Source of the DNA: an uncultured Candidatus Saccharibacteria bacterium
GTDB lineage: Bacteria; Patescibacteriota; Minisyncoccia; Phycocordibacterales; UBA5272
DNA length: 64,000 nucleotides
Direction of reading: 5' to 3'
NCBI GenBank assembly: GCA_964464695.1
Contig: CAYXKW010000003.1
Coordinates: forward strand, 10,577-74,576
Below, one piece after another: positions 8,257 through 50,154 of this stretch; within the stretch, counting starts at the first letter, position 1, and every line of letters starts with the position of its first letter. Made by a program: the position numbers and the translations under genes. Below the pieces are notes generated by a model. The model saw only the letters and a list, made by a program, of their open reading frames with translations. It was not told where the DNA came from and made no database searches.

Positions 8257-8383
8257 AGTGGGCAATGACGAAGGAGTAGACCTCCAGTATATACCAACGT
8301 CGTACAATATTATGTGGAGAATGACTATATATGTATAGATAGGGGATATACTACCTAATAGTAGTACTTTATAGGAGTTTGGT

Positions 8384-9395: not shown

Positions 9396-10037
9396 ATGAC
9401 AGTCATCAAACACAGCGACCAGCGTGTCGCAATTTTTATTGATACACAAAACTTGTATCACAGTGCAAAAAATCTTTACAATACAAAAGTAAATTTTGGC
9501 GCAATTATGGAGACCGTAACCGGTAAACGTAAACTTATTCGTGCTCTCGCATATGTTATTACAACTGAAGCAGGGGATGAAACACAATTTTTTGAAGCAC
9601 TCACAAAGCTTGGAATTGAAACAAAAACAAAAGATCTCCAAATATTTTATGGAGGTGCTAAAAAAGCCGACTGGGATGTTGGTATGGCGGTGGACGCTAT
9701 TCGTATTGCGCCAAAAGTTGATACGATAGTACTCGCAACAGGGGATGGAGATTTTGTGCCACTTGTTAATTTTCTCAAGGAACACTTTGGTGTCCAGGTG
9801 GAAGTAATTTCATTTGGTAGATCATCATCAACTAAACTTCGCGAAGCATGTGAAGATTTTATTGATATGTGTGACCAACCAGAGAAGTTCCTCATGGGGT
9901 ACAGAGTCAGGAGACCTGCACCAAAAAAGGGGAAGACTCGTGATACCAGCGTCAAAAAATCAGTCCGCAAAGAATATTCAGATGAAGACTTGGGAATTTT
10001 TAGCGGGGAAAGTCCTTCGGGAGAAACAAAGAATTAA
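9396..10037 (+). CDS. NYN-domain (LabA/DUF88-like) putative RNase with basic C-terminal tail
   Basis: RVAIFIDTQNLYHSAK...KADWDVGMAVDAI...IVLATGDGDFVPLV matches the NYN/LabA-like PIN-fold pattern. It sits where pnp usually follows rpsO. Confidence 0.6.
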   Translation: MTVIKHSDQRVAIFIDTQNLYHSAKNLYNTKVNFGAIMETVTGKRKLIRALAYVITTEAGDETQFFEALTKLGIETKTKDLQIFYGGAKKADWDVGMAVDAIRIAPKVDTIVLATGDGDFVPLVNFLKEHFGVQVEVISFGRSSSTKLREACEDFIDMCDQPEKFLMGYRVRRPAPKKGKTRDTSVKKSVRKEYSDEDLGIFSGESPSGETKN

Positions 10038-16800: not shown

Positions 16801-18185
16801 GTAAAAGATTACGTGGTGACGGTCCGAAAACTGAAACACTCGAAGAATATGATAAGCGCGAAAAGTTAGAGAAAGTTGTAACTGACGCTAAAAATAGTGA
16901 CGAACACCAAGAAAACCAAGATGAGCTAAGAAAGAAACATCAGGAAATGTTTGCTCGTGATCCTGACCTCTACAAACATATCTATGGAGGGGGGAATAAA
17001 GTACGTGACGATGTTACTGAGAAAATTTCATCAGAAATTCTGCCATCAAAATCTGCCCAGACTCCAAAAGAATATCTAATAGCTCTTATAAAAGAAAAAG
17101 AGGTCCTCGAAAAGAAGTGGCAAGCTATCTATGATGATATTGCCAAAGGAACTGCTGTTGGTAATCCAACTGGGGAAGCCAAAGTACTACGTGCACAAAT
17201 TGAGCTTCTTGATCTACGAATAGCAAAGTACACCAAAGTTATTCTTGATGATCAAATCCACAAACCAGAACACTCTTCATTTGTAACCAATAAAATGGTG
17301 TACAGCCCAACAGATGAAGTACAGCCCACACCAGGTGCCGTAAACATCGGTCGGGAACTTTTAACGAACAGAGAAGAAATAGAAGCACTTGGAAAAGAAC
17401 AAGTTAATGTGGCAACGAGTGTCCTTCCTCATCATCAATCAGGACTTATATCGACGCTCACTCCACAGCAAGCAGGGATAGCTGAAGGAGCTATTCACTT
17501 AGAGCCTGGAGCAATGGACAATACTGACTTAGAACGTTATAAAACAGAAAATCCTGAAGCAAAAGTTGTTAGTGTAGAAAATAAACAAGAACGCCAAACA
17601 TTTGTTCAAAAACTAGTTGACGTACTTTTTACATTTCCAAAAGTAAGAATGAATAAGTGGGGGTGGCTTGCAGCTGGATTAACAACAGCTGCGGTTGGGG
17701 GAGCTGCTGCATATACCGTAGGGACAGTCGAAAAAAATAATAGACCGAAAACTATTGCAGAACTTATAAAAAATCAACCATCATGGGAGACTTTTATAAA
17801 CGAAAATGTTCCAAAACAATTTATTCTTAATTTTAACGGACCAAAAGCATTACCCTTTGATGAATTTATTAAAGTCAGTGCTCCTTCGTTTGCAATTGGA
17901 CCAAATAATCCATCTGCAAAAGATAAGATTGCAAATTTACTTTGTAAAGATGTCTACGATGTTGAGGGTGCAAACAGTGGATTAACAGAGCTACAACAGC
18001 GTGAGAGTGCAGAGATAGTTAAAAACCTACAAGAGATTATCAAAGCAACAAAAGCACCTTCTGGTGTACTCTACGAAAAAGATGCTCGATTCTTTGGTGA
18101 TATGACTATTCGTCAACTCTATGAAGTAGCTCGTAAAATTGCTGCTGACGCTACAACAGAAAAAGCTAGACTAGGTACAAAATAA
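13869..18185 (+). CDS. giant (1438 aa) acidic coiled-coil protein with internal repeats and a single predicted TM helix near the C-terminus
   Basis: No signal peptide. Long K/E-rich coiled-coil. Internal duplication: YEILIDGKNILVPKVFLGTLNRY...FSRATRLKEEVLHAIEGAEFDFADRKARALGEELN vs YKIRINGKFETVPLSALHTLNRY...FTSAITLKDAVLDAIQTGDFTTAKKKADLLTIELN. TM WGWLAAGLTTAAVGGAAAYTVGTV at about aa 1270. Confidence 0.6.
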   Translation: MTEPTNPENKGEGTSPTSGKPAGTFGPPNRRVDSITPPKGEKVSTTDLEKMRKLERFSEKVDYIIKYAKNLLSDAKELLPQEGYAEIESMISELESFKVDVEKDYNTFESCDGEADKIEEILRGVQKQIFGLLNNGEVEVLQEKNRNEKITLLSRQQTRYLKLLSSIETIRKSNISDTTLQEDTLRTADELNWLSESEKTEEFAREAELEKLVEIKTSVDTLTEKLEEALMLLKKENEEREQTEIENKAQENIKTRTADISRKYQELRDEVGGLKIIDTALHSQIEEKEGAIAKVRGKLKGKPSQKNLDDFIKLVTEYEELLPELRSAVVATITPPSFLSRSISNQEDPAPTPDSTPAKTTEQLTDRAPDDIGISNIRETKESLDRNNDSKEYEILIDGKNILVPKVFLGTLNRYTSALKNPALSGKDFSRATRLKEEVLHAIEGAEFDFADRKARALGEELNIIEGVTAVTDPSKAPNRNVGDITGSFESGYEIQTKSGLHPLRNPKVPETIMKYEEMSNDPKYVGYDFTLASQSKDAVIAKLVDDDFAQAKFEAMRLGDELRKIELAVNDAVAKENSRRGLQRSPKDINLPEISENKKAGSEENRYKIRINGKFETVPLSALHTLNRYKKIFENQAFKSENFTSAITLKDAVLDAIQTGDFTTAKKKADLLTIELNRITKENSNQNSTQENQSAKTGQEPSQLEKNKKFNNPPVGEIVSLLTKDRYVGKQVEYRAKNNTSAEREIINDLKTWEKKWLLGGAIDTYREKNGNIKISDAQVRTTKLILQTYKQLLEQNINSEVNTDVMRTVPQNIIICTQILAGIHNETKSDIKYLVEHYSERADDALLQKLRSYFIAQPHVTHKQLSSIENSNLEKRFLLLGNTLKDGDTVLQTILPYITSTEERSSLLKLSSELKTLEEEIKGNKTLELIESFKKKLDVYLMYVTKKAAVLQARYGAQNIVPQPTVSPKNITVMRSKRLRGDGPKTETLEEYDKREKLEKVVTDAKNSDEHQENQDELRKKHQEMFARDPDLYKHIYGGGNKVRDDVTEKISSEILPSKSAQTPKEYLIALIKEKEVLEKKWQAIYDDIAKGTAVGNPTGEAKVLRAQIELLDLRIAKYTKVILDDQIHKPEHSSFVTNKMVYSPTDEVQPTPGAVNIGRELLTNREEIEALGKEQVNVATSVLPHHQSGLISTLTPQQAGIAEGAIHLEPGAMDNTDLERYKTENPEAKVVSVENKQERQTFVQKLVDVLFTFPKVRMNKWGWLAAGLTTAAVGGAAAYTVGTVEKNNRPKTIAELIKNQPSWETFINENVPKQFILNFNGPKALPFDEFIKVSAPSFAIGPNNPSAKDKIANLLCKDVYDVEGANSGLTELQQRESAEIVKNLQEIIKATKAPSGVLYEKDARFFGDMTIRQLYEVARKIAADATTEKARLGTK

Positions 18186-21032: not shown

Positions 21033-21830
21033 ATGCTTCCAAAAAAATCCCTTGGTCAAAATTTTCTTACTTCTATTCCTGCACGTATAGCTATTGTGAA
21101 AGCAGGGGAAATAGTGCCGTCTGACACTATTTTTGAAGTTGGTCCAGGGAGAGGATTCCTCACAAAAGGTTTACTCGAGACGAGAGCGTGTGTTGTTGCT
21201 CTTGAAAAAGATAGAGATCTTATCCCGGTACTCACAGAAACCTTTGCGGAAGAGATCGCAAATAAGCAGCTTATCCTAACTGAAGGGGATGTCCTTGATT
21301 TTGACCTTACTGACCAAAAGCTAATGGCTAATGGCTACAAACTGATTGCAAACATTCCATACTACATAACAGGCGCAATTCTCTCAAAGTATCTCTCTCA
21401 CACACACCAACCGAACATGATGGTGGTCTTAGTACAAAAGGAAGTGGCAGAACGAGTATGCGCACGTGATGGTAAAGAGTCTCTCCTTTCACTTTCGGTA
21501 AAAGTATACGGCGAACCAAAAGTGTACTATAGAGTATCTCGCGGGAGTTTCAACCCTGCGCCAAATGTTGACTCGGCAGTCCTTCAAATAAAAAACATCT
21601 CACGTGCTAACTTTACTAATCAATACCATGAAGCAATTTTCTTCAAACTTATTCACGCTGGATTTGCTCATAAAAGGAAATTTGCTATCTCAAATATTAA
21701 AGAAGTCTTTGCTGCATTTGATATTCCAGCTTTATTTGAAGAAGTTGGACTTTCTCCGAAGGTGCGAGCTGAGGATGTTACACTCTCCTCATGGCTGTTA
21801 CTATCCTCTCGTTTGTCTACACACTCATAA
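21033..21830 (+). CDS. rsmA: 16S rRNA (adenine1518/1519-N6)-dimethyltransferase
   Basis: KKSLGQNFL...VFEVGPGRGFLT is the KsgA SAM-binding motif. C-terminal KsgA domain. Confidence 0.85.
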   Translation: MLPKKSLGQNFLTSIPARIAIVKAGEIVPSDTIFEVGPGRGFLTKGLLETRACVVALEKDRDLIPVLTETFAEEIANKQLILTEGDVLDFDLTDQKLMANGYKLIANIPYYITGAILSKYLSHTHQPNMMVVLVQKEVAERVCARDGKESLLSLSVKVYGEPKVYYRVSRGSFNPAPNVDSAVLQIKNISRANFTNQYHEAIFFKLIHAGFAHKRKFAISNIKEVFAAFDIPALFEEVGLSPKVRAEDVTLSSWLLLSSRLSTHS

Positions 21831-23203
21831 CTGTAGGGCTTCTTTATTTTTTTCTTAATAAATCTCTTACCCGGGACTTTCCATTACGAAAAAACATACC
21901 TTGGTGGATACTCTTTGGTTTTGTTTTTAATTTTTGTAGTTTCACATGGCTCTATACCGTCTATCCACTTATTTGGATACCAACGGGAGTACTACAGATT
22001 ATTGGTATCGCAATCATTCATCTTACGGTATCTATTCTCGTAGGGCTTTGTTTTTGTATTGTAGGGTACATACTGACAAACTCTTCTTCCAAGAAGATTA
22101 CATCCATATATAGACCATTTCTATTTGCAGCCAGCCTTACACTAGCAGAAGTATTCCGGTCACTTATGTTGTCACTTATTTTTTATGGCAATGATGGGTC
22201 GATTAACTTGCACTTCACCTCAGGAACTCTTGGAAATGCACTTTCATCTACACCACTTATCGAGTTTGCATATTTTGGTGGGACGTTTGCACTCACCTTT
22301 CTACTTGGATACCTTGTCTATTCCTTCAGTTCTTACTCTCATATGAAGACCTACTGGAAACACGTTGCTATCATAGTAGCAATACTTGTTGGTATTCATG
22401 TATTTGTTCCAATATATGGTCCAACACAAAAAACAGTAGTTGGTATTGTTACTACTCATTTTAAAACACAATCAGATAATTATCTTGTAAGTTCTTTTAA
22501 AGAACAAAATATAAAAGTAGATGCAATGACACAATCTTTTTTCATATCTTCACGTGATATACCTGATATCATTGTCTATCCAGAAGACACGCGTTATATA
22601 GACCACCTCTCAAATGAAAAGGTATCACTACTTTCAACAACATTTCCAAAAACACTTTTTGTTGATGGTTCTACACGAATCATTGATGGTAAACGTGTCA
22701 ACATTTCATTTTTTTATAATTCTGAAACCAGAAAGACGTTAGGGCGTGGTAAAAGTTTTCTACTACCCTTTAATGAGTACATTCCATTATTCTTTAAACC
22801 TATATTTGGATTTTTTATTCCTAAAGAAGAGATGGGGGAGTACTCAGCTAATCACACGTATACACCAGTCTACTCAGGTAAAACAATCTTTTTTAATGGT
22901 ATGCACATTGGCACACTACTTTGTTCAGAAATTCTCTCGTTTAAAACAATAGCGGATGTAAAAAAAGAGAAACCCTCTCTTGTGTTCTTTCAATCACATT
23001 TAAATGTATTCCATGATAACTCACTGTTTAGAATGCACCTCTACTCTTTTACAAAAATAGCAGCTGCACAGTTGCGGCGTCCACTTATAAGTAGCACAAA
23101 TGGTGCACCTTCACTTATTGTTTCTCCGTATGGAGTAATCATTGAAATCATTCCTACTGGGTTTAGTACATCGACACATGTATTTTCATCTCCTTCTCAA
23201 TAA
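21791..23203 (+). CDS. lnt: apolipoprotein N-acyltransferase-like membrane protein (CN-hydrolase fold)
   Basis: Six or more N-terminal TM helices. Candidate Lnt catalytic triad context: IVYPED (E), KSFLLPFNEYIPLFF (K, close to Lnt K..LVPFGEY.P) and GTLLCSEIL (C). The start overlaps the ksgA end and is uncertain. Confidence 0.5.
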   Translation: MAVTILSFVYTLITVGLLYFFLNKSLTRDFPLRKNIPWWILFGFVFNFCSFTWLYTVYPLIWIPTGVLQIIGIAIIHLTVSILVGLCFCIVGYILTNSSSKKITSIYRPFLFAASLTLAEVFRSLMLSLIFYGNDGSINLHFTSGTLGNALSSTPLIEFAYFGGTFALTFLLGYLVYSFSSYSHMKTYWKHVAIIVAILVGIHVFVPIYGPTQKTVVGIVTTHFKTQSDNYLVSSFKEQNIKVDAMTQSFFISSRDIPDIIVYPEDTRYIDHLSNEKVSLLSTTFPKTLFVDGSTRIIDGKRVNISFFYNSETRKTLGRGKSFLLPFNEYIPLFFKPIFGFFIPKEEMGEYSANHTYTPVYSGKTIFFNGMHIGTLLCSEILSFKTIADVKKEKPSLVFFQSHLNVFHDNSLFRMHLYSFTKIAAAQLRRPLISSTNGAPSLIVSPYGVIIEIIPTGFSTSTHVFSSPSQ

Positions 23204-23326: not shown

Positions 23327-24253
23327 ATGAACGAACAACAAAACATGACAACAAAGAAAGCACTCATTGTTGTTGGACTTTTTATTTTTTTACTTATGAT
23401 TACGCTTGTTGCTCCTGCAACCTGGGTCGGGGTTAAGCCAAAAAAACAAACTGGTCTTATTCTTAGAAATGCTAATGATTTCGCTGTTCTTTCAAAAGAT
23501 ACAGACAGAAATAATAACCCAGACTGGAAAGACCTTCTCATGCAGACAACAAGTGCGTCCACGACCGCTGTTGCAAATAAATATATTGTTACAGAAGCCG
23601 ACAAACAAAGACTTGATGACCCTAACAACATAACATCTTCTTTTTCTAAGAATCTCTACACAGTCTCTTCCTATGCAAAAAAGGCAGGGGACATGTCTAC
23701 ATCTGAACAAGAATCTATTGTAACAAGTCTAGTGACAAAGGAAGTACAAAAAATAGAGACTTCAGTGTATACATTTGATGACATTAAAGTATCAAGCACT
23801 GAAACCCCTACAAGTATTAGAGCGTACGGTAATCAACTTGGTACTATTTTTAAAAAGGCAACGAGTTTTAAGTTAGAGATTGTTGATGTAGACAAAATTC
23901 AAGCGTACAGTACAAATAAAGATCCTAATACTCTAGCTTCACTTGTTATTAAAAAAAATAATGCGAAGCTCATCTTAGAAGAACTTCTTAAAGTATCTGC
24001 TCCTAGATCAGCTTCGCCCTACCATCTCCTTATAGTTAACAGACTATCTGGGTATATAACTGTATTAGAAAATATGACTCAAGCTGAAAATGACCCTATG
24101 CGTGCAACGATTGCTTTTAATAACTATCTTCCAGCAATGAGATTACTCTTTTCATCACTATCAAATATGCAGCTGTATTTTAAGTTGTCTGATACCACAT
24201 TTTCTCAAAATGAACCTGGATATGTCTTAAATTCAGAGTATACTATCAAATAA
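23327..24253 (+). CDS. hypothetical bitopic membrane protein, first gene of the T4SS-like block
   Basis: N-terminal TM (ALIVVGLFIFLLMITLVAPA), then an about 280-aa extracytoplasmic domain. Confidence 0.45.
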   Translation: MNEQQNMTTKKALIVVGLFIFLLMITLVAPATWVGVKPKKQTGLILRNANDFAVLSKDTDRNNNPDWKDLLMQTTSASTTAVANKYIVTEADKQRLDDPNNITSSFSKNLYTVSSYAKKAGDMSTSEQESIVTSLVTKEVQKIETSVYTFDDIKVSSTETPTSIRAYGNQLGTIFKKATSFKLEIVDVDKIQAYSTNKDPNTLASLVIKKNNAKLILEELLKVSAPRSASPYHLLIVNRLSGYITVLENMTQAENDPMRATIAFNNYLPAMRLLFSSLSNMQLYFKLSDTTFSQNEPGYVLNSEYTIK

Positions 24254-24255
24254 CT

Positions 24256-25893
24256 ATGAAATATTTTTTCTTTCTTTTTTTCTTTCTTCTTAGCACAATT
24301 ACTCCAACGCAAGTTCATGCAGGCGCTGCAGGTGGAGGGTCTACTGAAGTTACACAGATTCTTAATAATGTTCAACTAATTCCTATAAACTACTCTGATG
24401 CAATTACAGCCTTTGCAACCAAAGGAACGTTTGTTAAAGAAGTTATTCTTAATCCAATAGCAAATGCTCTTATTTCCTCAGCTCTTGAAGGAGTTAGTAA
24501 TGATATTCTTTCATGGGTAAGTGGCGGTTTTGGGGGATCAGCACCACTTGTGATTGGTGACCCCGAGAGTTACATTAGAAACGCTGGTCTCGAAGCTGTT
24601 CGCGATAGTCTTTCTGGAATTCCAACTGATAGTGTTTTTGGGGACAGTATTTTTAATTCAATTCTTAACCAGTACAAAAACACAGACGACGTAACTGCTA
24701 CACTAAAAAATCTAAGCAAGTCTGATATTCCCTCTATTCTTCAGAATAATTTATGTACCGATGAGAAGTTGACGTCACTTTCTGTTGATGCGATAGCGGA
24801 CCAAAATGGTAACTATAACCAAGCAGATCTTACTGCCAAAAAAACAGAGCTGTGGAATTATGCATGTGCCGGAGATCCAGAGTCTAATCCACAAGTTGCA
24901 GCAAGGTTACAGGATCTTAATGATCAGAATCCATCAATTGGTGGCTGGGATACATATCTTGCTACAACAGGAGGAGACAATGCTTACACAAAAGGTGCAT
25001 TAGCAAAAAACGTCGTGAAAGAAGCCGACGAAATAAAAAAATCACTTGCTTCAAAAGAATTGTTTGATGGCGCAGGACCAGTGAGCGAGAAAGAATGTCT
25101 AAAGTTTGATGGAAATGTTAGTGAAGGTCAGATTGCAAAATGTTTACAATGGTTAACTACAACTCCAGGGGAACAAGTAGGGGATACTCTTACTGAGGCT
25201 CTCACCGCAGGAACTAAAAGACTAGAAAACATCATGGGGGACGGTTCATTAACTAACATGCTACAAGGTTTTGCTGTTTCTGCTATTACATCAGGCATAA
25301 AAAAGGCACTTAATTCATCTAGTGGTGGCTCACTCAATATTCCCATAGCCCTCCCTTCTAGTCGCCCAATAGTTCAAGACCTACTAAATGACCCACTTAA
25401 GAAAACTCAAAACTTACAGCCAATGGACAAGCAACTGGCATATTTCTCAACCTCACTAAACAACCTTGCGTCAATTGATAGTAGTTACATGACAGACCTT
25501 TTGTCTTATGAAGCGAAAATTGCCACCTTAAGTACTTGCGCCCTCGCATCCTCATACTACAGTAACAGAATGAGTAGAATCACTACTGCAAAAAGCTCAA
25601 TTATAGCAGAACAAGCAAAAATTGCTGAAGCAAAACTTCTTGTAACCGAAACCCAAACTAAGCTAAATGCTTCTGATTCATCCCAGGAACAAAGTACGAT
25701 TTTTAACGCCTATTTAACTGCTGTAGATGACAGAGGCCTTCCAACTTACCAAACAGAAGCAACTCGAGAAGCTGAGTACACCATCAACAAATTCAATGTT
25801 AGCCATGATACAGAATTGGGAACTTACCAGACACAGTGTGCTCAACAGCAGCAACAGCAGCAACCCAATCAAATATACGAAGGTAGCGGATAG
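24256..25893 (+). CDS. secreted hypothetical protein (545 aa)
   Basis: Signal peptide MKYFFFLFFFLLSTITPTQVHA. Q-rich C-terminus (QQQQQQQPNQ). Confidence 0.5.
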   Translation: MKYFFFLFFFLLSTITPTQVHAGAAGGGSTEVTQILNNVQLIPINYSDAITAFATKGTFVKEVILNPIANALISSALEGVSNDILSWVSGGFGGSAPLVIGDPESYIRNAGLEAVRDSLSGIPTDSVFGDSIFNSILNQYKNTDDVTATLKNLSKSDIPSILQNNLCTDEKLTSLSVDAIADQNGNYNQADLTAKKTELWNYACAGDPESNPQVAARLQDLNDQNPSIGGWDTYLATTGGDNAYTKGALAKNVVKEADEIKKSLASKELFDGAGPVSEKECLKFDGNVSEGQIAKCLQWLTTTPGEQVGDTLTEALTAGTKRLENIMGDGSLTNMLQGFAVSAITSGIKKALNSSSGGSLNIPIALPSSRPIVQDLLNDPLKKTQNLQPMDKQLAYFSTSLNNLASIDSSYMTDLLSYEAKIATLSTCALASSYYSNRMSRITTAKSSIIAEQAKIAEAKLLVTETQTKLNASDSSQEQSTIFNAYLTAVDDRGLPTYQTEATREAEYTINKFNVSHDTELGTYQTQCAQQQQQQQPNQIYEGSG

Positions 25894-26007: not shown

Positions 26008-28896
26008 ATGAAAAGACTTGTTGTACTGGTCTCTGTTATGGTATTTGCTGTAAGTATTTTCGGCTCTTTCCCTGTATTAAAAGTACACGCTCAAGCTGCA
26101 GCAGCAGAAGCAACTGTTACAAAACAAGACTTGTTAAATAGTGGTAATGCTGTGTTTAATACTTTTCTTGCGGAACTAGCACAAAGACAAGCTAATCCTC
26201 GACAAATCCCATCATTAACAACTGCTACAGACCAAGTAGTTGCCAACTATGTCTTAGGGGTATCAAAGTTAATTCCAGCGATCGTGGCTGCTCAAGGTAC
26301 TTTTGTTCAATTACTTAACACTCCTGCGGCTGCCTCTACAAATATCTTTGCTGATTACACTGCTGCACTAAACGCAGCACACTCGAGCATTAATCTAGCT
26401 CAATCAAATACTTTTGAAATAAGAACTGTTTCTCAAGTTCGTACAGAAGTAACCACAATTTCTACTAGAATTAGACTTGAATCTCAAAATCAACAGAGTG
26501 CTTTAATTAATAGCGGCCAGGGGAACGCTGCACTTGCTATACAAAGTGCAGTTGGAACACAAAGAACCCAGCAAGTTGTAAATGAACTAGAGAGTACCTG
26601 TAGCTTACTGAACATAATCTCATGCCTTGACCAGGCAACAAACTGGATTATAAAAAATATTCTTCTGGAGATTGCTGGATTTTTAGTTTGGGTGACTGCA
26701 AACATCTTTAATTATTCCGTCCAAATAGGAATTCTTAATTTTTCTAAGTGGGCACCTGATGCACTCTACCCGATATGGATCATCATTCGACAAATTATTT
26801 CTCTTCTTATCGTATTCATTGGTCTCTATCTTGGGTTCATGTACATTTTGGGTAAAGATGAGAAGTTTGCAAAGTACGTTCCATGGGTTATCGCATTTGC
26901 ACTATTTGTTAATTTCTCCTACCCACTTGTGAGGACTGCAATTGATCTTTCAAATATTGTCTCGTTAAAAGTGTATGTGAGCGCCATTGGTCCAGGAGCA
27001 TTGGATGCGAGCTTTTCATCAGAAAAAACAGCAGGGGCAATCATACGTGACAAGCTTGGTCTGCAAAGCTTGGCAGCTAACACAACAGCAACAGGAGCAA
27101 ATTCAAACAGTATCAGAACTGGACTAACTAGTACTCCAGCGTCGCTTATGGCACTATTTTTCACACTCTATGCTGCATACATTTTCTTTATGGTTTCCAT
27201 AATTATGGTCACTAGAACAGCTGCTCTTGTATTCTTAATTGTCGCTTCACCTCTACTGTTTGTAGACAGCGTTTTACCGATGCTTGGTGATAAAGCAATG
27301 ATGTTACGTAAAATATTTTTTGAGCAACTTGCAGTTGGTCCGATATTTATGATAATGCTTGCACTCACACTTAAATTTTTAGATGTCTTTCAAGTATCTG
27401 GCGCTTTTACCGGATTAAGTTCTGGAGACCAAACCATAAAAACATTCTTTAACCTTCTCATGATGCTTGTCATGTTACACATCATGATGACAGTAACTAA
27501 GAAAACAGCAGGTGCTGTTGGTGAGTTCGGAACCAAAGCAATGGGAACTGTTGGGGGATTTGCTCTAGGTGCTGCAGCTGGTGGCACAGGGCTACTTGCA
27601 CGAAAGGGTATTGGAGGGTTGGCTGCAAAAGCACGAGATAGCAAATGGGTAACCAACAATCAAGACTCATTCATTGGACGTCGTGCATATAATCTTTCCA
27701 ACTCTGTAGCAAATAGTACGTTTGATCTTCGTAACACTGCAGTTGCAGGCAAAATGGCAGGCATCGGCATGGGGATGGGGATGGGAGCAAAGCTTGGGTA
27801 CAGTGAAGAAACTAAAGCAAAAATGGAAGCACGAACAAAGGAAGCTCTTGCAAAAAGTGCAAGAATAAAAACTCATTATGAGAGAGACATGGTTAAAGAT
27901 AAGATTGGAGAGGACGGGAAAGTTGTCTATGAAGAAGTTGATGACGGTAAAGGAGGAAAAGTAAAAAGAAAAGTCCAAGAAGTAGTTCACAGAAAAGGGG
28001 ACGTGGATGCAGATGCTTGGAAGGCAAAAGACAGACTCATTACTGCGGCAGGGGGAGGTACTTTGTTTATGACCAAGAAACAAAAACAAGATCTGCGAGA
28101 CACACTTGGGAAAACACAAAATGAGGAAGCTTCAAAAAGAATTGCAGAAAATGAAGCAAACAGTACGAAAGATGCTCAAATATATAAGAGTATTAATGAA
28201 GAAGAAAGACTTCCTGATGGTAAAATCCTAACCATAAAGCAATCTAAGGCAAGATTCCTTGCAGGGCTTGAAAATGAACTTAAAACACTAGAAAAAACAG
28301 ACCCTACACTTCAAGGCAATCAAGCTCAGTCACTTATGAAAAGTATTCAGTCTATCAAAAAAACTGAAGCTGCTGAAAATGCTGCTTTTGACAAGCAAGT
28401 TAAAGATGTCTTCTTTAGTTATAACAATAAAATTGGAGCTGAGAGAGAGAACTATCTATCTAATCAATCAAAGGAAATTTTTGACGCAGTACACGCACTG
28501 AAAGATGAGGCGTTGGCAATAGATAAAGCAAGAGATGAGGCTCTGGATCTTGATTTAACCGGTACACCTGAGGAACGAAGAGTCTCTGGCATAGCTGCTG
28601 CTGCTAATCTTCGTGGACAAGTAGAATCAATACTTGCTGAGAAGGATCAAAATGGGGCAGTTCCAATTTATTCTTCTGCAGTCGATATTCCATTTGACGT
28701 GTCCACTCAGAGTTTTGCAGAAAAAGTAGCAGCTACACGTAAAGCAAAATTAAAACTAGCAACACAAGCAGCGGACGCCTATGTTCCTCCTCAGGTAACC
28801 CAACCTGATCCAGCAACTCCAATTCCTTCTGCTACCGCTCAGGCACCTTCAACCCCAGCCGCAAATGACTCCAAAAGTAACACAGCAACCGCATAA
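26008..28896 (+). CDS. TrbL/VirB6-like polytopic membrane protein with secreted N-domain and long Ala/Lys/Glu-rich C-terminal extension (962 aa)
   Basis: Signal peptide. About 7 TM helices between aa about 210-520 (IAGFLVWVTANIF..., IISLLIVFIGLYLGFMYIL..., VPWVIAFALFVNF..., SLMALFFTLYAAYIFFMVSIIMV..., FLIVASPLLF..., VGPIFMIMLALTL..., LLMMLVMLHIMMTV). Gly-rich GMGMGMGMG. C-terminal coiled-coil and P/A/T-rich tail. The topology and gene context resemble VirB6/TrbL. The assignment rests on pattern only. Confidence 0.45.
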   Translation: MKRLVVLVSVMVFAVSIFGSFPVLKVHAQAAAAEATVTKQDLLNSGNAVFNTFLAELAQRQANPRQIPSLTTATDQVVANYVLGVSKLIPAIVAAQGTFVQLLNTPAAASTNIFADYTAALNAAHSSINLAQSNTFEIRTVSQVRTEVTTISTRIRLESQNQQSALINSGQGNAALAIQSAVGTQRTQQVVNELESTCSLLNIISCLDQATNWIIKNILLEIAGFLVWVTANIFNYSVQIGILNFSKWAPDALYPIWIIIRQIISLLIVFIGLYLGFMYILGKDEKFAKYVPWVIAFALFVNFSYPLVRTAIDLSNIVSLKVYVSAIGPGALDASFSSEKTAGAIIRDKLGLQSLAANTTATGANSNSIRTGLTSTPASLMALFFTLYAAYIFFMVSIIMVTRTAALVFLIVASPLLFVDSVLPMLGDKAMMLRKIFFEQLAVGPIFMIMLALTLKFLDVFQVSGAFTGLSSGDQTIKTFFNLLMMLVMLHIMMTVTKKTAGAVGEFGTKAMGTVGGFALGAAAGGTGLLARKGIGGLAAKARDSKWVTNNQDSFIGRRAYNLSNSVANSTFDLRNTAVAGKMAGIGMGMGMGAKLGYSEETKAKMEARTKEALAKSARIKTHYERDMVKDKIGEDGKVVYEEVDDGKGGKVKRKVQEVVHRKGDVDADAWKAKDRLITAAGGGTLFMTKKQKQDLRDTLGKTQNEEASKRIAENEANSTKDAQIYKSINEEERLPDGKILTIKQSKARFLAGLENELKTLEKTDPTLQGNQAQSLMKSIQSIKKTEAAENAAFDKQVKDVFFSYNNKIGAERENYLSNQSKEIFDAVHALKDEALAIDKARDEALDLDLTGTPEERRVSGIAAAANLRGQVESILAEKDQNGAVPIYSSAVDIPFDVSTQSFAEKVAATRKAKLKLATQAADAYVPPQVTQPDPATPIPSATAQAPSTPAANDSKSNTATA

Positions 28897-30359: not shown

Positions 30360-31001
30360 ATGGCAAAAGGGCAAGCAACACAGGAATTTGTACCAATCGA
30401 AAGAGTGCGTGATGGAATCGTAATCCTTAAGACAGGTGAAATTCGTTCTATCTTAATCACAAATTCACTGAACCTTGGACTTAAGAGTGAGGATGAGCAA
30501 CAAGCTGTACTTTCTCAATTCCAAAATTTTCTTAATTCTCTTGATTTTCCAGTACAATTTTTTGTTGAATCACGAAAGCTCAATATAAAACCTTATATGA
30601 CACTCCTTCAAGAGAGAAGCACACTTGTCAAAGAAGACCTTCTTAAAATTCAGATCCATGAATACATGGGGTTTATAACAAAGTTCACGGAAGAGAGTAA
30701 TATTATGACGAAACACTTCTTTGTAACGGTTCCATATTTTAACCAGAGTACTCAGACCATATCTACCAATTCGCTTATTAATTTAGCAGGGGCAAGTAGT
30801 AGTCAGCCAAAAAATATAGAAGACACCTTTGAAATGTCACGTATCCAACTCGACCAGCGTATTGCAACTGTTATTCAAGGGCTTTCACGATTTGGTCTGC
30901 GTGCACAACGACTTGGAACAGAGGAGGTTGTGGAACTTTTTTATAAACTATTTAACCCAGGAGAAGGAGACCGTACAGCTCCTAAGGCAGGACAACAATA
31001 A
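30360..31001 (+). CDS. VirB4/TraC/PrgJ-type ATPase, N-terminal domain, encoded as a separate ORF (213 aa)
   Basis: EFVPIERVRDGIVILKTGEIRSILITNSLNLGLKSEDEQQAVLSQFQNFLNSLDFPVQFFVESRKLNI is the conserved N-domain pattern of VirB4-family proteins. It ends at TAA 30999-31001. The downstream ATPase ORF starts 6 nt later in another frame. Confidence 0.6.
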   Translation: MAKGQATQEFVPIERVRDGIVILKTGEIRSILITNSLNLGLKSEDEQQAVLSQFQNFLNSLDFPVQFFVESRKLNIKPYMTLLQERSTLVKEDLLKIQIHEYMGFITKFTEESNIMTKHFFVTVPYFNQSTQTISTNSLINLAGASSSQPKNIEDTFEMSRIQLDQRIATVIQGLSRFGLRAQRLGTEEVVELFYKLFNPGEGDRTAPKAGQQ

Positions 31002-31006
31002 CAACT

Positions 31007-32836
31007 ATGGGACTATTTGATTTTTTAAACAAAAAGAAGGAAGAGCCGTCAGGTGGCTCACTTATCACACCCGTTCTTCCAGACCAGGTCTACAAAGTTG
31101 CGGAAATGCAGCTCAAAGATATCATCGCACCGAGCGCTCTTGAGATACAACCAAAGGCACTTAACCTTGGGACAACAATTGTGCGTTCATTTTTTGTTAT
31201 CTCATATCCTAGATACCTTACTGATAATTGGCTCAGTCCGATTATTAACTTAGACAAGGTGTTTGATATTGCAATTCACGTTGTTCCACTTAACACTGGC
31301 GAAATCATGAAAACATTCCAACGTAAAGTTGCGGAAGTGGAAAGTCAGATTATGATTCGTGATGAAAAGGGGCTCGTACGAGATCCAACACTTGACGTTG
31401 CCTACCAAGACTTAGAAGACCTCCGTGACGGACTTACTCAGGCTCAGGAAAAAATGTTTGAGGTCTCCCTCTACATCACACTCTACGGATATACAAATGA
31501 GGAACTTGATAAATCAGAAAATGAAATCAAAAATATTCTTGAAAGTAAGCTTGTCTACGTAAAACCAGCACTCTTTCAACAAGACACTGGTTTTGTTTCT
31601 ACTATTCCTGTAGGACAAGATCTTCTTCAAATAAAAAACAAACTAAACACTTCTCCTCTTTCATCTTTTTTCCCGTTTGTATCATTTGATCTTTCGTCAG
31701 ACAAAGGTATTTTATATGGACTCAATCGTCATAATGGAAGTCTCATTCTTTTTGATAGATATTCACTTGAAAACTACAACTCTATTGTTTTTGCAAAATC
31801 TGGTTCTGGAAAAAGTTATTTCACAAAACTAGAAATTTTAAGAACACTCATGTTTGAAACAGAAGTTATTATCATCGACCCAGAACGAGAATACGAATTC
31901 TTAGCTGAATCTGTTGGGGGAAGGTACTTTGATATTTCTCTTGTTGGGAATCACCACATCAATCCATTTGACCTCCCTCATCCAACACAAGATGAATCAC
32001 CGTCTGAAGTGCTTCGCTCGAACATTGTTAACCTCGTTGGGCTTTTCCGTGTAATGCTTGGAGGTCTTACTCCGGAAGAAGACGCAATTATCGACCAAGC
32101 TATTACAGAAACATATGCACTTAAAGATATTAATGGGGAAAATGACTTTACACGACTTGAACCACCACTTCTTTCAGACTTCGAAACAGTGCTTGAGGGG
32201 ATAGACGGGTCAGAAAGTTTATTACAAAGACTTTCTAAATATACACGTGGGACATGGTCTGGATTTATTAATCAACCATCTAATGTTGATATTAATAAAA
32301 AACTTGTTTGTTTCTCTATTCGAGATATGGAGGAAGAGCTCAAACCAGTTGCGATGTATATCATTACACACTTCATTTGGAATGCGGTACGAAAGCACCT
32401 TAAGAAGAGACTCCTTGTTGTGGATGAAGCGTGGATTATGATGAAAAATGATGACACTGCATCATTCCTTTTTAGTCTTGCGAAACGTGGAAGAAAATAT
32501 TATCTTGGACTTGCCACAATCACTCAAGACGTTGGGGACTTCCTCAAGTCACCGTACGGTCTACCTATTATTACCAACTCCTCGATTCAGATTCTCCTTA
32601 AACAATCTCCTTCATCAATTGATATCGTTCAAAAAACATTTAACCTTACCAATGAAGAAAAATATCTACTCCTGGAGTCCGGTGTCGGAGAGGGCATATT
32701 CTTTGCAGGACTAAAGCATGTGGCCATAAAAGTGGTAGCTTCATATACTGAGGACCAAATTATTACTAGTGACCCTTCTCAACTTCTTAAAATCCAGAAG
32801 ATGAAAGAAGAAGTTTCAGAATCAAAAGGTGTATGA
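31007..32836 (+). CDS. VirB4/TraC/PrgJ-type type IV secretion ATPase, ATPase domain (609 aa)
   Basis: Walker A FAKSGSGKSYFT. Walker B LLVVDEAWIMM. Conserved LATITQDVGDF and IFFAG motifs of VirB4-family ATPases. Confidence 0.8.
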   Translation: MGLFDFLNKKKEEPSGGSLITPVLPDQVYKVAEMQLKDIIAPSALEIQPKALNLGTTIVRSFFVISYPRYLTDNWLSPIINLDKVFDIAIHVVPLNTGEIMKTFQRKVAEVESQIMIRDEKGLVRDPTLDVAYQDLEDLRDGLTQAQEKMFEVSLYITLYGYTNEELDKSENEIKNILESKLVYVKPALFQQDTGFVSTIPVGQDLLQIKNKLNTSPLSSFFPFVSFDLSSDKGILYGLNRHNGSLILFDRYSLENYNSIVFAKSGSGKSYFTKLEILRTLMFETEVIIIDPEREYEFLAESVGGRYFDISLVGNHHINPFDLPHPTQDESPSEVLRSNIVNLVGLFRVMLGGLTPEEDAIIDQAITETYALKDINGENDFTRLEPPLLSDFETVLEGIDGSESLLQRLSKYTRGTWSGFINQPSNVDINKKLVCFSIRDMEEELKPVAMYIITHFIWNAVRKHLKKRLLVVDEAWIMMKNDDTASFLFSLAKRGRKYYLGLATITQDVGDFLKSPYGLPIITNSSIQILLKQSPSSIDIVQKTFNLTNEEKYLLLESGVGEGIFFAGLKHVAIKVVASYTEDQIITSDPSQLLKIQKMKEEVSESKGV

Positions 32837-33857: not shown

Positions 33858-34718
33858 ATGGCCTCATATACGCAACTCGAACCTGCTGCATTTCAATCAT
33901 TGGGAATAACTACTAACACTTCCTTTAATGGCGCAGATGTTTCATTCTTCACCACAACCTCCTTTCTCTATACCTTATGTTTTATTGCAATAGTAGGAGC
34001 TGCATTTTATAGATATGTACTTGTAGGGGTATACAGAATGGAAGCGTCCGAGAGTGGAATACGAAAGAGTAATGAGACATTTAAAAAGACGACTCTTGGA
34101 TTACTTGGGGTGTTCGCACTTTTTTTGATTATTGCGACGTTGAATAGTCAGTTGTTGACGGGGAATGTGGGATTAGAGGAACTTCAATCAAAACCTGCAG
34201 CCCCTGCAGCACCAGTTACTCAGTCATCCGGAGGAACGACAGGAACAAATCCCATTGCACAAGCTCCTTCTGGAGTAACAAATCCTACAATTCCAACTAA
34301 CAATAATGACCCCGTAGGTTGGGGGGCAATTAGTGCTGATCCAGTTGTAAGAACCCAGTTAAGATCATTGCCAAATGGTGGAATAACCGTAAACAAGAAT
34401 GTTTGCCAAGCTCCAACCCTAACCCAATGCACAACAGTTGGTGGTTGGCCAGCAGAAACTCCTTCAATGTTGGCTACATTAAGACAGACTTGTGGTGGTA
34501 ATATTGAAGTTACAGGAGGGACTGAAGCTGGACACTCATCACACGGACCTGGTAGAACAGCCGTTGATCTTTCGTTAAATGACTCAACTCTCGAAGCTTG
34601 TATTAGATCTTTTCCTGTTGGACCTCAAAAAAGTTTCTGTAGGGTCACCTATATTAAATTTGGTTATCTTTTTTGTGATGAGTTAGGTGTTAGACATTGG
34701 CACGTTTACCAACAGTAG
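33858..34718 (+). CDS. membrane protein: two-helix (pilin-like) N-terminal module fused to M15-like (LAS-type) zinc peptidase domain
   Basis: Two TM helices separated by loop RMEASESGIRKSNETFKKTT. The C-domain has SSHGPGRTAVDL (close to the LAS/M15 S.H..G.A.D motif) and a terminal HWH (H.H). The N-module is nucleotide-identical to the paralog at 36091-37077. Confidence 0.5.
   Translation: MASYTQLEPAAFQSLGITTNTSFNGADVSFFTTTSFLYTLCFIAIVGAAFYRYVLVGVYRMEASESGIRKSNETFKKTTLGLLGVFALFLIIATLNSQLLTGNVGLEELQSKPAAPAAPVTQSSGGTTGTNPIAQAPSGVTNPTIPTNNNDPVGWGAISADPVVRTQLRSLPNGGITVNKNVCQAPTLTQCTTVGGWPAETPSMLATLRQTCGGNIEVTGGTEAGHSSHGPGRTAVDLSLNDSTLEACIRSFPVGPQKSFCRVTYIKFGYLFCDELGVRHWHVYQQ
33935..34172 (+). repeat. 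238-bp segment, 100% identical to 36165-36402 (direct repeat inside two paralogous genes)
   Basis: Read directly. gatgtttcattcttcaccacaacc...gggaatgtggga is identical in both copies. Flanks diverge immediately. Confidence 0.9.
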
Positions 34719-36090: not shown

Positions 36091-37077
36091 ATGGTACAGT
36101 ATCAACCTCTCGAACCCTCCTCATTCCAGTCATTAGGAATTACTTCTCCTTCCTTCAACGGAGAAGATGTTTCATTCTTCACCACAACCTCCTTTCTCTA
36201 TACCTTATGTTTTATTGCAATAGTAGGAGCTGCATTTTATAGATATGTACTTGTAGGGGTATACAGAATGGAAGCGTCCGAGAGTGGAATACGAAAGAGT
36301 AATGAGACATTTAAAAAGACGACTCTTGGATTACTTGGGGTGTTCGCACTTTTTTTGATTATTGCGACGTTGAATAGTCAGTTGTTGACGGGGAATGTGG
36401 GACTGTCTGATCTTACTGTGAACGGTGTTAGATCTGGTGCAGCAGTAACCAATCCAATAAATACTCAAGTAAACACAGGCTCAGGGAGTGGTAGTAGCTC
36501 GCGATCGTGTGAAACAACCGAAGCAACAATCACTAAACTTACTTCCACTGGTGGTATTTGTGGTGGGACAGCATGTACTATTTTATCCGGTTGTAACTAC
36601 CAACAGTACTCGTCAATTATAGATCAAGAAGTTGCAGGTAATACTGATCTTAGAAAGATGATAATTGTAACTATGTGCAAAGAGTCTCGAGCGCAGGTAA
36701 ATGCTGCAGGAAATAATCCAAATGGAACGTTTGATTGTGGGCTAATGCAAATCAATCAACCAACTCCATGTGACGCAACTATTTTAAACCCTGCAGAAAA
36801 TATTCGTCGAGGAGTAGCACTTATGAAAGAAAAAATAAGACTTACTTCTCAAACATATCAAAATATACCTGCAGAAACTGGACCTTTTTCATCGTACAAT
36901 TGCTGTGCAAACGGCACTGTTCCAAATGCTCCAAGTGCTGATTGTACTACCGCTAATGGCTTTCCTTTTGCGATCCCTAAATGGGCATGTCCAATCAACC
37001 CAGGAGAGAGTTCTTCAAATATGTGTACTGTAAAAAATTACGCTTGTGAGCTGAGTGTCTGTATGAAGCAACTATAA
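36091..37077 (+). CDS. membrane protein: the same two-helix N-terminal module fused to a lytic transglycosylase (SLT) domain, VirB1-like function
   Basis: SLT signature MCKESRAQVNAAGNNPNGTFDCGLMQINQ...AENIRRGVALM (catalytic E-S, GLMQ). N-terminal 80 aa identical to ORF 33858-34718. Confidence 0.6.
   Translation: MVQYQPLEPSSFQSLGITSPSFNGEDVSFFTTTSFLYTLCFIAIVGAAFYRYVLVGVYRMEASESGIRKSNETFKKTTLGLLGVFALFLIIATLNSQLLTGNVGLSDLTVNGVRSGAAVTNPINTQVNTGSGSGSSSRSCETTEATITKLTSTGGICGGTACTILSGCNYQQYSSIIDQEVAGNTDLRKMIIVTMCKESRAQVNAAGNNPNGTFDCGLMQINQPTPCDATILNPAENIRRGVALMKEKIRLTSQTYQNIPAETGPFSSYNCCANGTVPNAPSADCTTANGFPFAIPKWACPINPGESSSNMCTVKNYACELSVCMKQL
36165..36402 (+). repeat. second copy of 238-bp identical direct repeat
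   Basis: See 33935-34172. Confidence 0.9.
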
Positions 37078-37218: not shown

Positions 37219-38082
37219 TTATCTATGTTTTTTGTATTTCTTATTTCTCTTATCCTTTTTACCAGATGAGTGAATTTCTTCTTTAACTTCTTTAACAATT
37301 TCTAGCCCTTCTTCTTCAACTTCCTTAATAACATCAAATGCTTCACCTCTAATGAGAGGAGGGGCAAGGTGGGCCAATTTTCGCTTCATATGAACATCTA
37401 GAGCGTAACTTGCTGTGTTACTGATGAACCAGTAGAGGCCAAGGGCAGAGGGAAGAGCCATCGCTGAAACTGCGATAATAATTGGAAGAACATACAATAA
37501 CTGTATCTTCATAGACTTCATAAAATGAGCCTGGAAAGATTCTTTATCTTTATTATTCTGAGAGCCACTCATATCCATAGTTTGTGTCTGACGACGAGCC
37601 AAGAAATAGGAAGAAATGCCTGCAAGAAGTGCAATTACTATATTCTTTTCTGTTACGTCAAAAACACCAAAGGCTACAGTATGTAGAGATTCTGGGAAAG
37701 TCACAAATGAATAAATAGACTTTGGATCATCAATCAATCCTTTAGAGAAAACGATATAGAGTGCAATAAATATTGGAATCTGTAATATCATCGCAAACAA
37801 AGAAGAAAAAGGATTTATTTTCTGTGTTCTATAAAGTGCAACCATCTGCTTAGACGCACCTTGTGGGTCTGTTTTCTGCATTTCCTTAATCTTATTCATT
37901 TCAGGTTCAATCTTCTTCATCATGTACTGCGTACGAAGAGCAGACATGTTAAATGGAAGTAAAATTGCCTTTACAATAAGGGTTACAATAACAATTGCTG
38001 CTCCAATATCATGAAGAGGGACAAAAGTAAGTACTATAACAAGGAGGTTATAGACTGGTTCGTAAAATAGTGTGTGGAACAT
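37219..38082 (-). CDS. yidC: membrane protein insertase YidC (short form) with Lys-rich C-terminal tail
   Basis: LLPFNMSALRTQYMMKKIEPEMNKIKEMQKTDPQGASKQMVALYRTQKINPFSSLF is the canonical YidC/Oxa1 core. C-terminal KKDKRNKKYKKHR ribosome-binding-type tail. Confidence 0.85.
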   Translation of the reverse strand: MFHTLFYEPVYNLLVIVLTFVPLHDIGAAIVIVTLIVKAILLPFNMSALRTQYMMKKIEPEMNKIKEMQKTDPQGASKQMVALYRTQKINPFSSLFAMILQIPIFIALYIVFSKGLIDDPKSIYSFVTFPESLHTVAFGVFDVTEKNIVIALLAGISSYFLARRQTQTMDMSGSQNNKDKESFQAHFMKSMKIQLLYVLPIIIAVSAMALPSALGLYWFISNTASYALDVHMKRKLAHLAPPLIRGEAFDVIKEVEEEGLEIVKEVKEEIHSSGKKDKRNKKYKKHR

Positions 38083-40353: not shown

Positions 40354-41445
40354 ATGAAATTCGAATGTAAAGGAGAAGTGTTTATTCAAGCAGTTCAACA
40401 AGTGTCTCGAGCTAAGAGTAAAACTCAATCACAACAATCACTACAAGATATTCATATTGAGGTAATTAATCATCTTCTAACATTACGTGCTACTAACTTA
40501 GAATTATTCTGTGAGAAGAGTATTCCTGTAAAAGGAATTGTTAATGGTGCATGTTTACTACAAGGAGAAACACTTCTTAGAATTATTTCTACATTTAATT
40601 CAAAAGATATAACTCTTACCTGTGAAATTATTGATGGAGTTTTTACTATTACAACAGAAAAGGGGGTTATTGAAATAAAAACAACACCATATGAAGATTT
40701 TCCAACACTACCTTCTCAAGGTGAACAGATAGGAATTCTTCCAAAAGAATCTATTGATATGTTATTACGTGAAGTTTCTTTTTGTTCAGCAACAACAGAT
40801 ATAAAACCAGAAATATCTTCTGTGTATATTTATACAAAAGATAGTTCTATTTATGCTGTTGCAACAGATTCTTATCGCCTTGCAGAAAAAACAATTCCTA
40901 ATAATAATGATTTAGATTTTTCATTTCTTATTCCTCAAAAACACATTGGTGAAATTCTTCAAATTTTAAATGAAGAAGAAGGGGATATTATGATTTCTCG
41001 TAATCAGAATATTGTTACCTTTTCAGGAACAACTTTAACACTTTCTATCCATACTGTTACTGGTCATTTCCCTGATTACAGACAACTTTTTCCAAAAGAA
41101 TTTACTACAAATGTGCTTGTTTCAAAAAGTGAATTACAAAAAGCTCTTTTACTAACAACATTTTTTAATGAACAATATTCTCAAGTTGAATGTATTTTTA
41201 CAGAAAATAAATGTACTGTTCATAGTAAAAGTGAAAGAGTTGGACAAGTAACTCATACAATAGAAGTAAAAAAAGAAGGGGAAGATATCGAAGTAAAATA
41301 TAATAATAAATTCTTCTTAGAAGTTCTCCCTCATATTGAAGGTGGTCTTGTTACGTGTATGTTCACAACACCTAATAAACCACTATTTATTCAAAGCAAG
41401 CAAGATATTAGTTTTACGTATCTTTTGATGCCACTAAACAGATAA
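40354..41445 (+). CDS. dnaN: DNA polymerase III beta sliding clamp
   Basis: 363 aa. Three-domain clamp pattern. Position directly after dnaA. Confidence 0.85.
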   Translation: MKFECKGEVFIQAVQQVSRAKSKTQSQQSLQDIHIEVINHLLTLRATNLELFCEKSIPVKGIVNGACLLQGETLLRIISTFNSKDITLTCEIIDGVFTITTEKGVIEIKTTPYEDFPTLPSQGEQIGILPKESIDMLLREVSFCSATTDIKPEISSVYIYTKDSSIYAVATDSYRLAEKTIPNNNDLDFSFLIPQKHIGEILQILNEEEGDIMISRNQNIVTFSGTTLTLSIHTVTGHFPDYRQLFPKEFTTNVLVSKSELQKALLLTTFFNEQYSQVECIFTENKCTVHSKSERVGQVTHTIEVKKEGEDIEVKYNNKFFLEVLPHIEGGLVTCMFTTPNKPLFIQSKQDISFTYLLMPLNR

Positions 41446-49823: not shown

Positions 49824-50154
49824 GTAATTAGTATACAAGATATGTCGAATGTCCGAGCCATAAATCTGTTGATGTAGCAGGGAACAGCTCATAGACTGTA
49901 GATCGAGACGGCTTGGCCCAAGACATGAATTTGCTAGTTCATCCGCGAAGATGCGAATTACCAAATTCTGAATTACCAAATTCACATCTCGGATGAAAGC
50001 TTGGCCATAAATAAGTAGCCGGCGAAGGGAACTGTAGACTGTAGTTTTATAATATTAAGACACATTTTTGATCACAGGTACATTAATAAAATATCGACAT
50101 TTTGCACCAAGACTACAGTTTACAAGCTGAAGTCTACAGTCTGAATTTTTTCGC

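Follow-up and report, generated by a model that had tools for sequence, protein, structure and literature searches.

A trsD-virB4 gene pair of a Patescibacteria type IV secretion system that very likely encodes VirB4 as two polypeptides

When the sequence of a VirB4 ATPase is found spread over two adjacent open reading frames (ORFs) that lie in different frames, is the gene broken, has the sequence been read or assembled wrongly, or is the protein simply made in two pieces? This question is raised by positions 30360-32836 on the plus strand of a 64,000-nucleotide (nt) stretch of contig CAYXKW010000003.1, referred to below as the window, which belongs to the assembly GCA_964464695.1 of an uncultured bacterium of the Patescibacteria. 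A sequence-only reading of the window had described two adjacent ORFs of 213 and 609 amino acids (aa) in different frames, together about 822 aa, and had left three explanations standing side by side, i.e. a genuine split, a frameshift or sequencing error, and an inactivated gene. The analysis presented here indicates that the locus is very likely a normal trsD-virB4 pair of a chromosomal type IV secretion system (T4SS) of Patescibacteria (Paceibacteria/Parcubacteria-type), with VirB4 made as two polypeptides; the two-gene interpretation of VirB4 taken by itself is held with great confidence.

The coordinates of both ORFs given in the sequence-only reading were confirmed. The 213-aa ORF closes with TAA at 30999-31001 and the 609-aa ORF starts with ATG at 31007, six nucleotides past that TAA as had been stated, with five nucleotides (CAACT) in between. 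The two frames differ, since (31007-30360) mod 3 = 2 places the 609-aa ORF at +2 relative to the 213-aa ORF, and the combined size of the two products is 822 aa. The nearest upstream stop in the frame of the ATPase is the TAA at 30983-30985; an insertion or deletion (indel) that fuses the frames is possible only within the 13 nt from 30986 to 30998, which contain no homopolymer run.

Whether the same junction occurs elsewhere was assessed by a scan of one genome per species, in which a relative of the 213-aa protein was found in 403 species. Junctions were analysed in the best 80 of these 403, all of them metagenome-assembled genomes (MAGs) of the Patescibacteria type, carrying labels such as Paceibacterota, Parcubacteria, Nomurabacteria and Adlerbacteria, and 79 of the 80 loci were assessable. 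A comparison with orthologous loci had been proposed along with the sequence-only reading, and it revealed the same stop/start arrangement in each of the 79 species. The small ORF closes with its own stop in every case (TAA in 73 loci, TAG in six), and the start codon of the ATPase ORF is always aligned to residue 1 of the window protein, being ATG in 78 of the 79. The spacer measures 1-14 nt in 74 loci and 25, 60, 450 or 466 nt in four; for L077, one analysis puts it at -6 nt, while the other places the ATG 9 nt further downstream and thus yields a spacer of 3 nt. All three relative frames are represented, 0 in 21 species, +1 in 33 and +2 in 25. Among these loci the spacers exhibit no sequence conservation and have further stops inside, and no conserved slippery motif was seen at the junction in the analysis of the related loci. 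Two of the loci, L068 and L075 (spacers of about 450 nt), even harbour a complete 23S_rRNA_IVP gene (PF05635, four-helix-bundle, E value about 1e-40) between trsD and virB4, at L068:4374-4763 and L075:4677-5039, and both flanking ORFs are intact despite the inserted gene. Because the stop and the start are kept in 79 of 79 loci with varying spacers and in all three frames, the arrangement is explained neither as an artefact nor as recoding.

Database searches gave a concordant result. The 213-aa protein has 5236 homologues in a database clustered at 90%, and the best 120 of them, with 74-100% identity, are all 202-218 aa long. In a library clustered at 50% there were 2022 cluster representatives at an E value of 0.001 or below; among the best 150, one is fused (797 aa, P0254) and almost all the others stand alone, with lengths of about 130-440 aa. 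In this lineage a separate gene for the N-terminal piece is the natural state, so that the split is not remarkable.

Two side observations were made on these homologues. Many TrsD homologues of 280-443 aa, including P0140, P0166 and P0248, have low-complexity C-terminal tails rich in Pro, Ala, Gln and Thr that extend past the conserved domain of about 205 aa; such long tails could only be accommodated on a standalone protein. Furthermore, one locus (L031) is labelled 'uncultured Alphaproteobacteria' and many others are labelled 'Candidatus Saccharibacteria', and the TrsD and VirB4 sequences of the oddly labelled loci share 70-95% identity with those from MAGs that bear the labels Paceibacterota or Parcubacteria. 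From these identities, the taxonomic labels of some third-party annotation (TPA) MAG records look unreliable.

The junction is also identical in a strain from a JGI metagenome with 96.3% nucleotide identity over the 2.5-kb region, as well as in a separate Logan assembly, and both ORFs are full length and alignable from end to end in species down to 54-59% identity. Selection on the two genes was measured over the 30 closest species (loci L001-L030) by comparing non-synonymous (pN) with synonymous (pS) differences, since synonymous sites saturate even in the closest species-level relatives and dN/dS proper is not estimable. Values of pN were 0.085-0.24 for the 213-aa ORF and 0.036-0.14 for the 609-aa ORF, against saturated pS values of 0.63-0.88. 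A pN this low beside a saturated pS means that strong purifying selection acts on both genes, and at non-synonymous sites the rate of TrsD is about 2-2.5 times that of the VirB4 next to it.

Family and structure matches identify the 609-aa product as a VirB4-type ATPase. With the NCBIfam model NF045971 of the CD1110 VirB4 family it reaches 376.3 bits (cutoff 325 bits), covering model positions 183-733 of 752, and with the Pfam family P-loop_TraG 90.3 bits (cutoff 25.8 bits). Among PDB sequences it matches the VirB4 C-terminal domain 4AG5 with its residues 230-588 (E value 1.1e-37) and also TrwK of R388 (7O41; E value 2.8e-8), and both Walker motifs are intact (Table 1). The 609-aa chain is not a complete single-chain VirB4, as the match with the CD1110 model begins at position 183 of 752, and model positions 2-137 are matched by the 213-aa ORF. 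It keeps about 230 residues of sequence of the VirB4 N-terminal half ahead of the region for which the ATPase domain has been solved. The assignment of the locus to the VirB4 family made in the sequence-only reading holds by the NCBIfam model matches of both ORFs. With regard to its description of the two parts as an N-domain and an ATPase, the pieces are indeed two parts of VirB4, but the cut falls inside the N-terminal half, after the first ~200 residues. Both proteins are soluble, no hydrophobic segment having been found in either the 213-aa or the 609-aa chain.

The 213-aa ORF covers positions 2-137 of 752 in the CD1110 VirB4 model, positions 102-239 of 894 in the Mbov_0397 VirB4 model and positions 13-200 of 201 in the TrsD/TraD model NF041427 (E value 1.6e-7). 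These matches identify its product as a protein of the TrsD type, with homology to the first ~200 residues of VirB4. Since the NCBIfam coverage of 2-137 by one ORF is followed by that of 183-733 by the other, the two ORFs complement each other without overlap in making up a single-chain VirB4. The precomputed annotation of an identical protein (P0001) and of all 120 best homologues contains PF26593 (TraC-like). A sequence search of PDB chains with the 213-aa protein gave no match even at E values up to 10, for which reason the connection to solved VirB4 structures was made through the predicted fold. The AlphaFold2 model, built with 49 homologues, has a predicted local distance difference test (pLDDT) score of 70.7 and is of the alpha/beta type, residues 128-151 forming a disordered loop; when it was compared with the PDB by Foldseek, the best 14 matches were all R388 TrwK/VirB4 chains. 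The fold matches are consistent with the assignment to the VirB4 N-terminus, without being independently decisive.

Several observations weigh against the interpretation of the pair as TrsD and VirB4. With NF041427, which has a cutoff of 200 bits, the 213-aa ORF scores 31.3 bits, whereas TrsD of pSK41 scores 227.6 bits, and an hhalign comparison of the window TrsD family with pSK41 TrsD gave a probability of 1.9% and an E value of 0.025. On account of that score and of the weak hhalign result, the 213-aa protein is to be seen as a remote relative of the narrowly curated TrsD/TraD family and not as a member of it. The direct profile comparison being non-significant, the relation to the staphylococcal TrsD is based on the NCBIfam TrsD model, on synteny and on the breakpoint discussed below. 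A local Pfam scan of the 213-aa ORF did not return PF26593 and yielded only a spurious sub-threshold match with PNK3P. The TrwK fold matches are weak (E values of 7.5e-3 to 0.3, TM-scores of 0.34-0.43) and the model behind them is moderately confident. Finally, no clear Shine-Dalgarno motif precedes the ATPase start in the junction analysis, and the role proposed below for TrsD is deduced from homology and synteny.

How the two pieces correspond to an undivided VirB4 can be followed in the fused relative P0254, which is encoded at L081:544-2937 in the Patescibacteria MAG GCA_964615945.1, after a PrgI gene and near dnaA. The concatenated 822-aa sequence is colinear with this 797-aa protein, with 48% identity over the whole length, and the 213-aa protein alone is 37% identical to residues 7-217 of P0254, in an alignment that is colinear from residue 4 to about 215. 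The sole discontinuity is the linker, in which residues ~200-213 of the 213-aa protein and residues 1 to ~35 of the 609-aa protein are replaced by a shorter segment. As for the suspicion that residues might be missing at the junction, the alignment with P0254 revealed that no conserved block has been lost and that the split lies in a variable, dispensable linker. The linker of P0254 reads ...GRQGMGG..., and the corresponding place in the split genes reads ...GQQ-stop-MGL.... This suggests that P0254 may be a secondary re-fusion that arose through a small deletion. It is possible, too, that the fusion in P0254 is an assembly error in the opposite direction, the protein having been found on a single contig.

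The comparative evidence has to be set against the ways in which a single gene of about 820 aa could come to look like two. That a sequencing or assembly indel has split a single virB4 in this contig would fit well with two ORFs lying 5 nt apart in different frames, and a fused relative of 797 aa (P0254) does exist; against this, the identical junction recurs in the 96.3%-identical strain from another metagenome and in the Logan assembly, the same architecture with varied spacers and three frames is present in 79 of 79 species, the stop at 30983-30985 leaves a window of 13 nt without a homopolymer, and standalone homologues of ~210 aa number in the thousands. Such an error is extremely improbable. 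A broken frame in a protein that is usually a single chain is likewise a classical sign of a pseudogene, so that an inactivated virB4 decaying after a frameshift deserves consideration. It conflicts with ORFs that are full length and alignable from end to end down to 54-59% identity, with pN far below the saturated pS and with intact Walker A and Walker B motifs, and trsD and virB4 have been reported as essential in a cultivated relative (PMC12102498). The pseudogene, too, therefore has next to no probability. Both the error/frameshift and the pseudogene readings were rejected on comparative evidence, namely the conservation in 79 of 79 loci, the comparison of pN with pS and the independently obtained identical junctions. 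The short distance between stop and start, together with the 21 of 79 species in which the ORFs are in the same frame with a stop and a few codons between them, could be taken to mean that programmed frameshifting or stop-codon readthrough joins the ORFs into a single-chain VirB4. The shift needed would, however, vary by species (0, +1, +2), the spacers are unconserved, with further stops and without a conserved slippery motif, a whole gene stands between the ORFs in L068 and L075, and the ATPase ORF has a start of its own, aligned to residue 1 and being ATG in 78 of 79 species. Recoding was rejected as well, frame and spacer varying freely and a gene being inserted in two species, and is very improbable. 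Of the three explanations put forward in the sequence-only reading, it is thus the genuine split that stands, by virtue of the 79 of 79 species, the identical junction in the 96.3%-identical strain and the low pN, and the frameshift or sequencing error and the inactivated gene that fall. The gene pair is genuine and functional and is ordinary for the phylum, its arrangement having already been published (PMC12102498).

A different objection accepts the two genes and questions what the smaller one does. TrsD could be a detached, paralogue-like protein with a function of its own, such as a regulator, a substrate adaptor or an assembly factor, and no longer the N-terminal piece of VirB4. Its evolution at a rate ~2-2.5 times that of VirB4 would be in agreement with this, as would the many homologues that reach 280-443 aa in total by means of long, disordered C-terminal tails rich in Pro, Ala and Gln; moreover, trsD is reported to be located apart from virB4 in Gracilibacteria, and no function is assigned to it (PMC12102498). 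On the other hand, the two genes are tightly adjacent in nearly all species examined, their concatenated product is colinear with the fused P0254, and the model coverage is complementary, the 609-aa protein being without exactly what TrsD supplies. A fully detached TrsD is accordingly regarded as unlikely.

Under the favoured reading, that of a trsD-virB4 pair, VirB4 would be made as TrsD (213 aa, with the TraC-like subdomain) plus a 609-aa protein comprising the remaining N-terminal half and the P-loop ATPase domain. The two genes would be co-transcribed and translationally coupled, so that both proteins are made together, and TrsD would associate non-covalently with the ATPase protein through the N-terminal part of the latter. 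In the structure from R388, the extreme N-terminus of VirB4 links the ATPase to the membrane protein VirB3. TrsD would supply this role of the extreme VirB4 N-terminus and tie the cytoplasmic ATPase to the membrane-embedded VirB3/PrgI that is encoded just upstream. That TrsD serves as the N-terminal assembly piece of VirB4 is, on homology and gene order, rather probable.

The pair is part of a larger cluster, the features of which are listed in Table 1. The order PrgI, TrsD, VirB4 recurs in independent contigs. The Pfam cutoffs to be compared with the scores in the table are 27 bits for PrgI and 21.3 bits for SLT. From its position in the cluster, the 962-aa protein is a candidate VirB6-like channel component, and the cluster also holds several secreted or membrane proteins. 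From the position of dnaA it follows that the T4SS cluster adjoins the chromosomal replication origin. Neither a relaxase nor a coupling protein was detected when 38 ORFs from across the window were scanned with Pfam; several large ORFs are without a Pfam match, so that a very divergent relaxase is possible.

Table 1. Coordinates of the trsD-virB4 pair, its sequence motifs and neighbouring genes in the window
Feature	Position	Strand	Remarks
ksgA (RrnaAD)	21033-21830		Pfam
962-aa polytopic membrane protein, candidate VirB6-like	26008..28896	+	~8 hydrophobic segments, no Pfam match
PrgI/VirB3-like membrane protein, 143 aa	29847..30278	+	Pfam PrgI 40.2 bits; 2 hydrophobic segments; immediately 5' of trsD
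trsD-like gene	30360..31001	+	213 aa, homologous to first ~200 residues of VirB4
Spacer CAACT, 5 nt	31002..31006	.	Between trsD stop and virB4 start
virB4	31007..32836	+	609 aa; rest of VirB4 N-terminal half (~1-230) and C-terminal P-loop ATPase domain
Walker A AKSGSGKSY (GSGKS = 266-270)	31793..31819	+	VirB4 residues 263-271, intact
Walker B LLVVDEAW	32411..32434	+	VirB4 residues 469-476, intact
328-aa protein, candidate VirB1-like cell-wall hydrolase	36091..37077	+	Pfam SLT 20.4 bits (cutoff of 21.3 narrowly missed)
yidC	37219-38082	-	
dnaA	38750..40087	+	Pfam Bac_DnaA, DnaA_N, Bac_DnaA_C
dnaN	40354-41445		

Some further observations concern the surroundings of the pair. Within the cluster, the products of 33858-34718 (+) and 36091-37077 (+) each possess two N-terminal hydrophobic segments at nearly corresponding positions (28-46 and 74-92 in the former, 27-45 and 73-91 in the latter), which suggests that they are paralogous membrane-anchored modules. 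At 48120-49985 (-), some 15 kb away from the T4SS cluster, lies the gene of a T2SSE/PilB-type ATPase that has an MshEN domain and is probably the assembly ATPase of a type IV pilus; such pili are likewise reported to be important for epibiotic Patescibacteria. Elsewhere in the window, a 455-aa tyrosine recombinase (Phage_integrase and a SAM-like N-terminal domain), whose N-terminal extension of ~145 aa is unusually long, is encoded at 7297-8664 (-), with an NYN-domain gene nearby at 9396-10037. An ORF of 1438 aa at 13869-18185 (+), located upstream of a uvrD-like helicase gene, has no Pfam match, and further large ORFs without a family match are found at 21791-23203, 23327-24253, 24256-25893 and 52304-54661.

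As regards annotation, the pair should be kept as two genes and not be marked as a virB4 that is frameshifted or pseudogenised, and the small ORF should be named as TrsD-like (VirB4 N-terminal, TraC-like domain). The window locus adds no new kind of system. Three details go beyond the available part of PMC12102498, namely that the pair is colinear with a fused relative, that spacer and frame vary, and that the breakpoint is identical to that of pSK41, to which may be added, as further modest points, the tolerance of an inserted gene between the ORFs and the faster evolution of TrsD in comparison with the ATPase. These additions could guide experiments on the assembly of a two-piece VirB4, in a secretion system that is of high current interest, being essential for epibiotic growth in the sole species tested. 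A more far-reaching idea, which is put forward tentatively and is more doubtful than probable, is that the breakpoint shared with pGO1/pSK41 reflects a single ancient fission, or else that a dissociable TrsD is functionally important. If there was a single fission, the origin of the essential, phylum-wide T4SS of Patescibacteria would be linked specifically to a pGO1-like conjugation system of monoderms, and rare fused forms such as P0254 would be secondary re-fusions. In the stronger version, the dissociable TrsD, which in many lineages has a long disordered tail, could for example connect PrgI/VirB3 with the ATPase in a regulated manner, as an adaptor within a T4SS repurposed for epibiosis.

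The closest known counterpart is the T4SS of Patescibacteria described in PMC12102498 (Quinonero-Coronel et al. 2025, Microb Genom). TrsD is reported there as remotely homologous to the N-terminus of VirB4, as known from the pGO1 subclass of MPF_FATA systems and without an assigned function, and as more abundant than any other T4SS component of Patescibacteria, at 2,272 homologues, 1,664 of them beside virB4; in Gracilibacteria trsD does not adjoin virB4. For Ca. Southlakia epibionticum ML1, trsD and virB4 are both reported as essential (Wang et al. 2023, cited in PMC12102498). The clusters usually lack a relaxase and are located near dnaA, dnaN and ksgA, and the system is considered in the literature to serve the epibiotic lifestyle rather than conjugation (PMC12102498). 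The window shares with these systems the lineage, the order PrgI/VirB3-TrsD-VirB4, the location by ksgA, dnaA and dnaN and the fact that neither a relaxase nor a coupling protein was detected; there is no substantive difference, and the window locus is one more example.

The layout is also that of the staphylococcal plasmids pGO1/pSK41 (MPF_FATA class, pGO1 subclass), in which a small VirB3-like gene precedes a TrsD of ~210-230 aa and, past a short gap, a VirB4-type ATPase of 610-670 aa. In pSK41 itself, trsC is followed by trsD (227 aa, annotated as TrsD/TraD family), a gap of 14 nt and trsE, which encodes a DUF87/VirB4-type ATPase of 672 aa. Aligned with the pSK41 ATPase, the window VirB4 begins at residue 6 opposite residue 5 of the plasmid protein (23% identity, E value 5e-33), and both ATPases start ~30 residues before position 183 of the CD1110 model. 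From this alignment and these start positions, the breakpoint between TrsD and the ATPase is the same to within a few residues in the window and in pSK41. The two systems differ in setting: the conjugative plasmid pSK41 carries both a relaxase and a coupling protein that resembles VirD4, whereas the window locus is chromosomal, beside the origin, and neither of these was detected in it.

A shifted gene boundary at the N-terminus of VirB4 is also encountered in the VirB3-VirB4 fusion proteins of some conjugative systems, where it is the outcome of fusion and not of fission. According to PMC12102498, VirB3 anchors VirB4 and VirB3-VirB4 fusions have not been found in Patescibacteria; none was seen in the window either. 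The single-chain VirB4 proteins, such as TrwK of R388, the CD1110 family of CTn2 and PrgJ of pCF10, share with the window pair the ATPase core, the Walker motifs and the order of domains, and differ from it in that their first ~200 residues belong to the same chain, whereas in the window these residues form a separate polypeptide.

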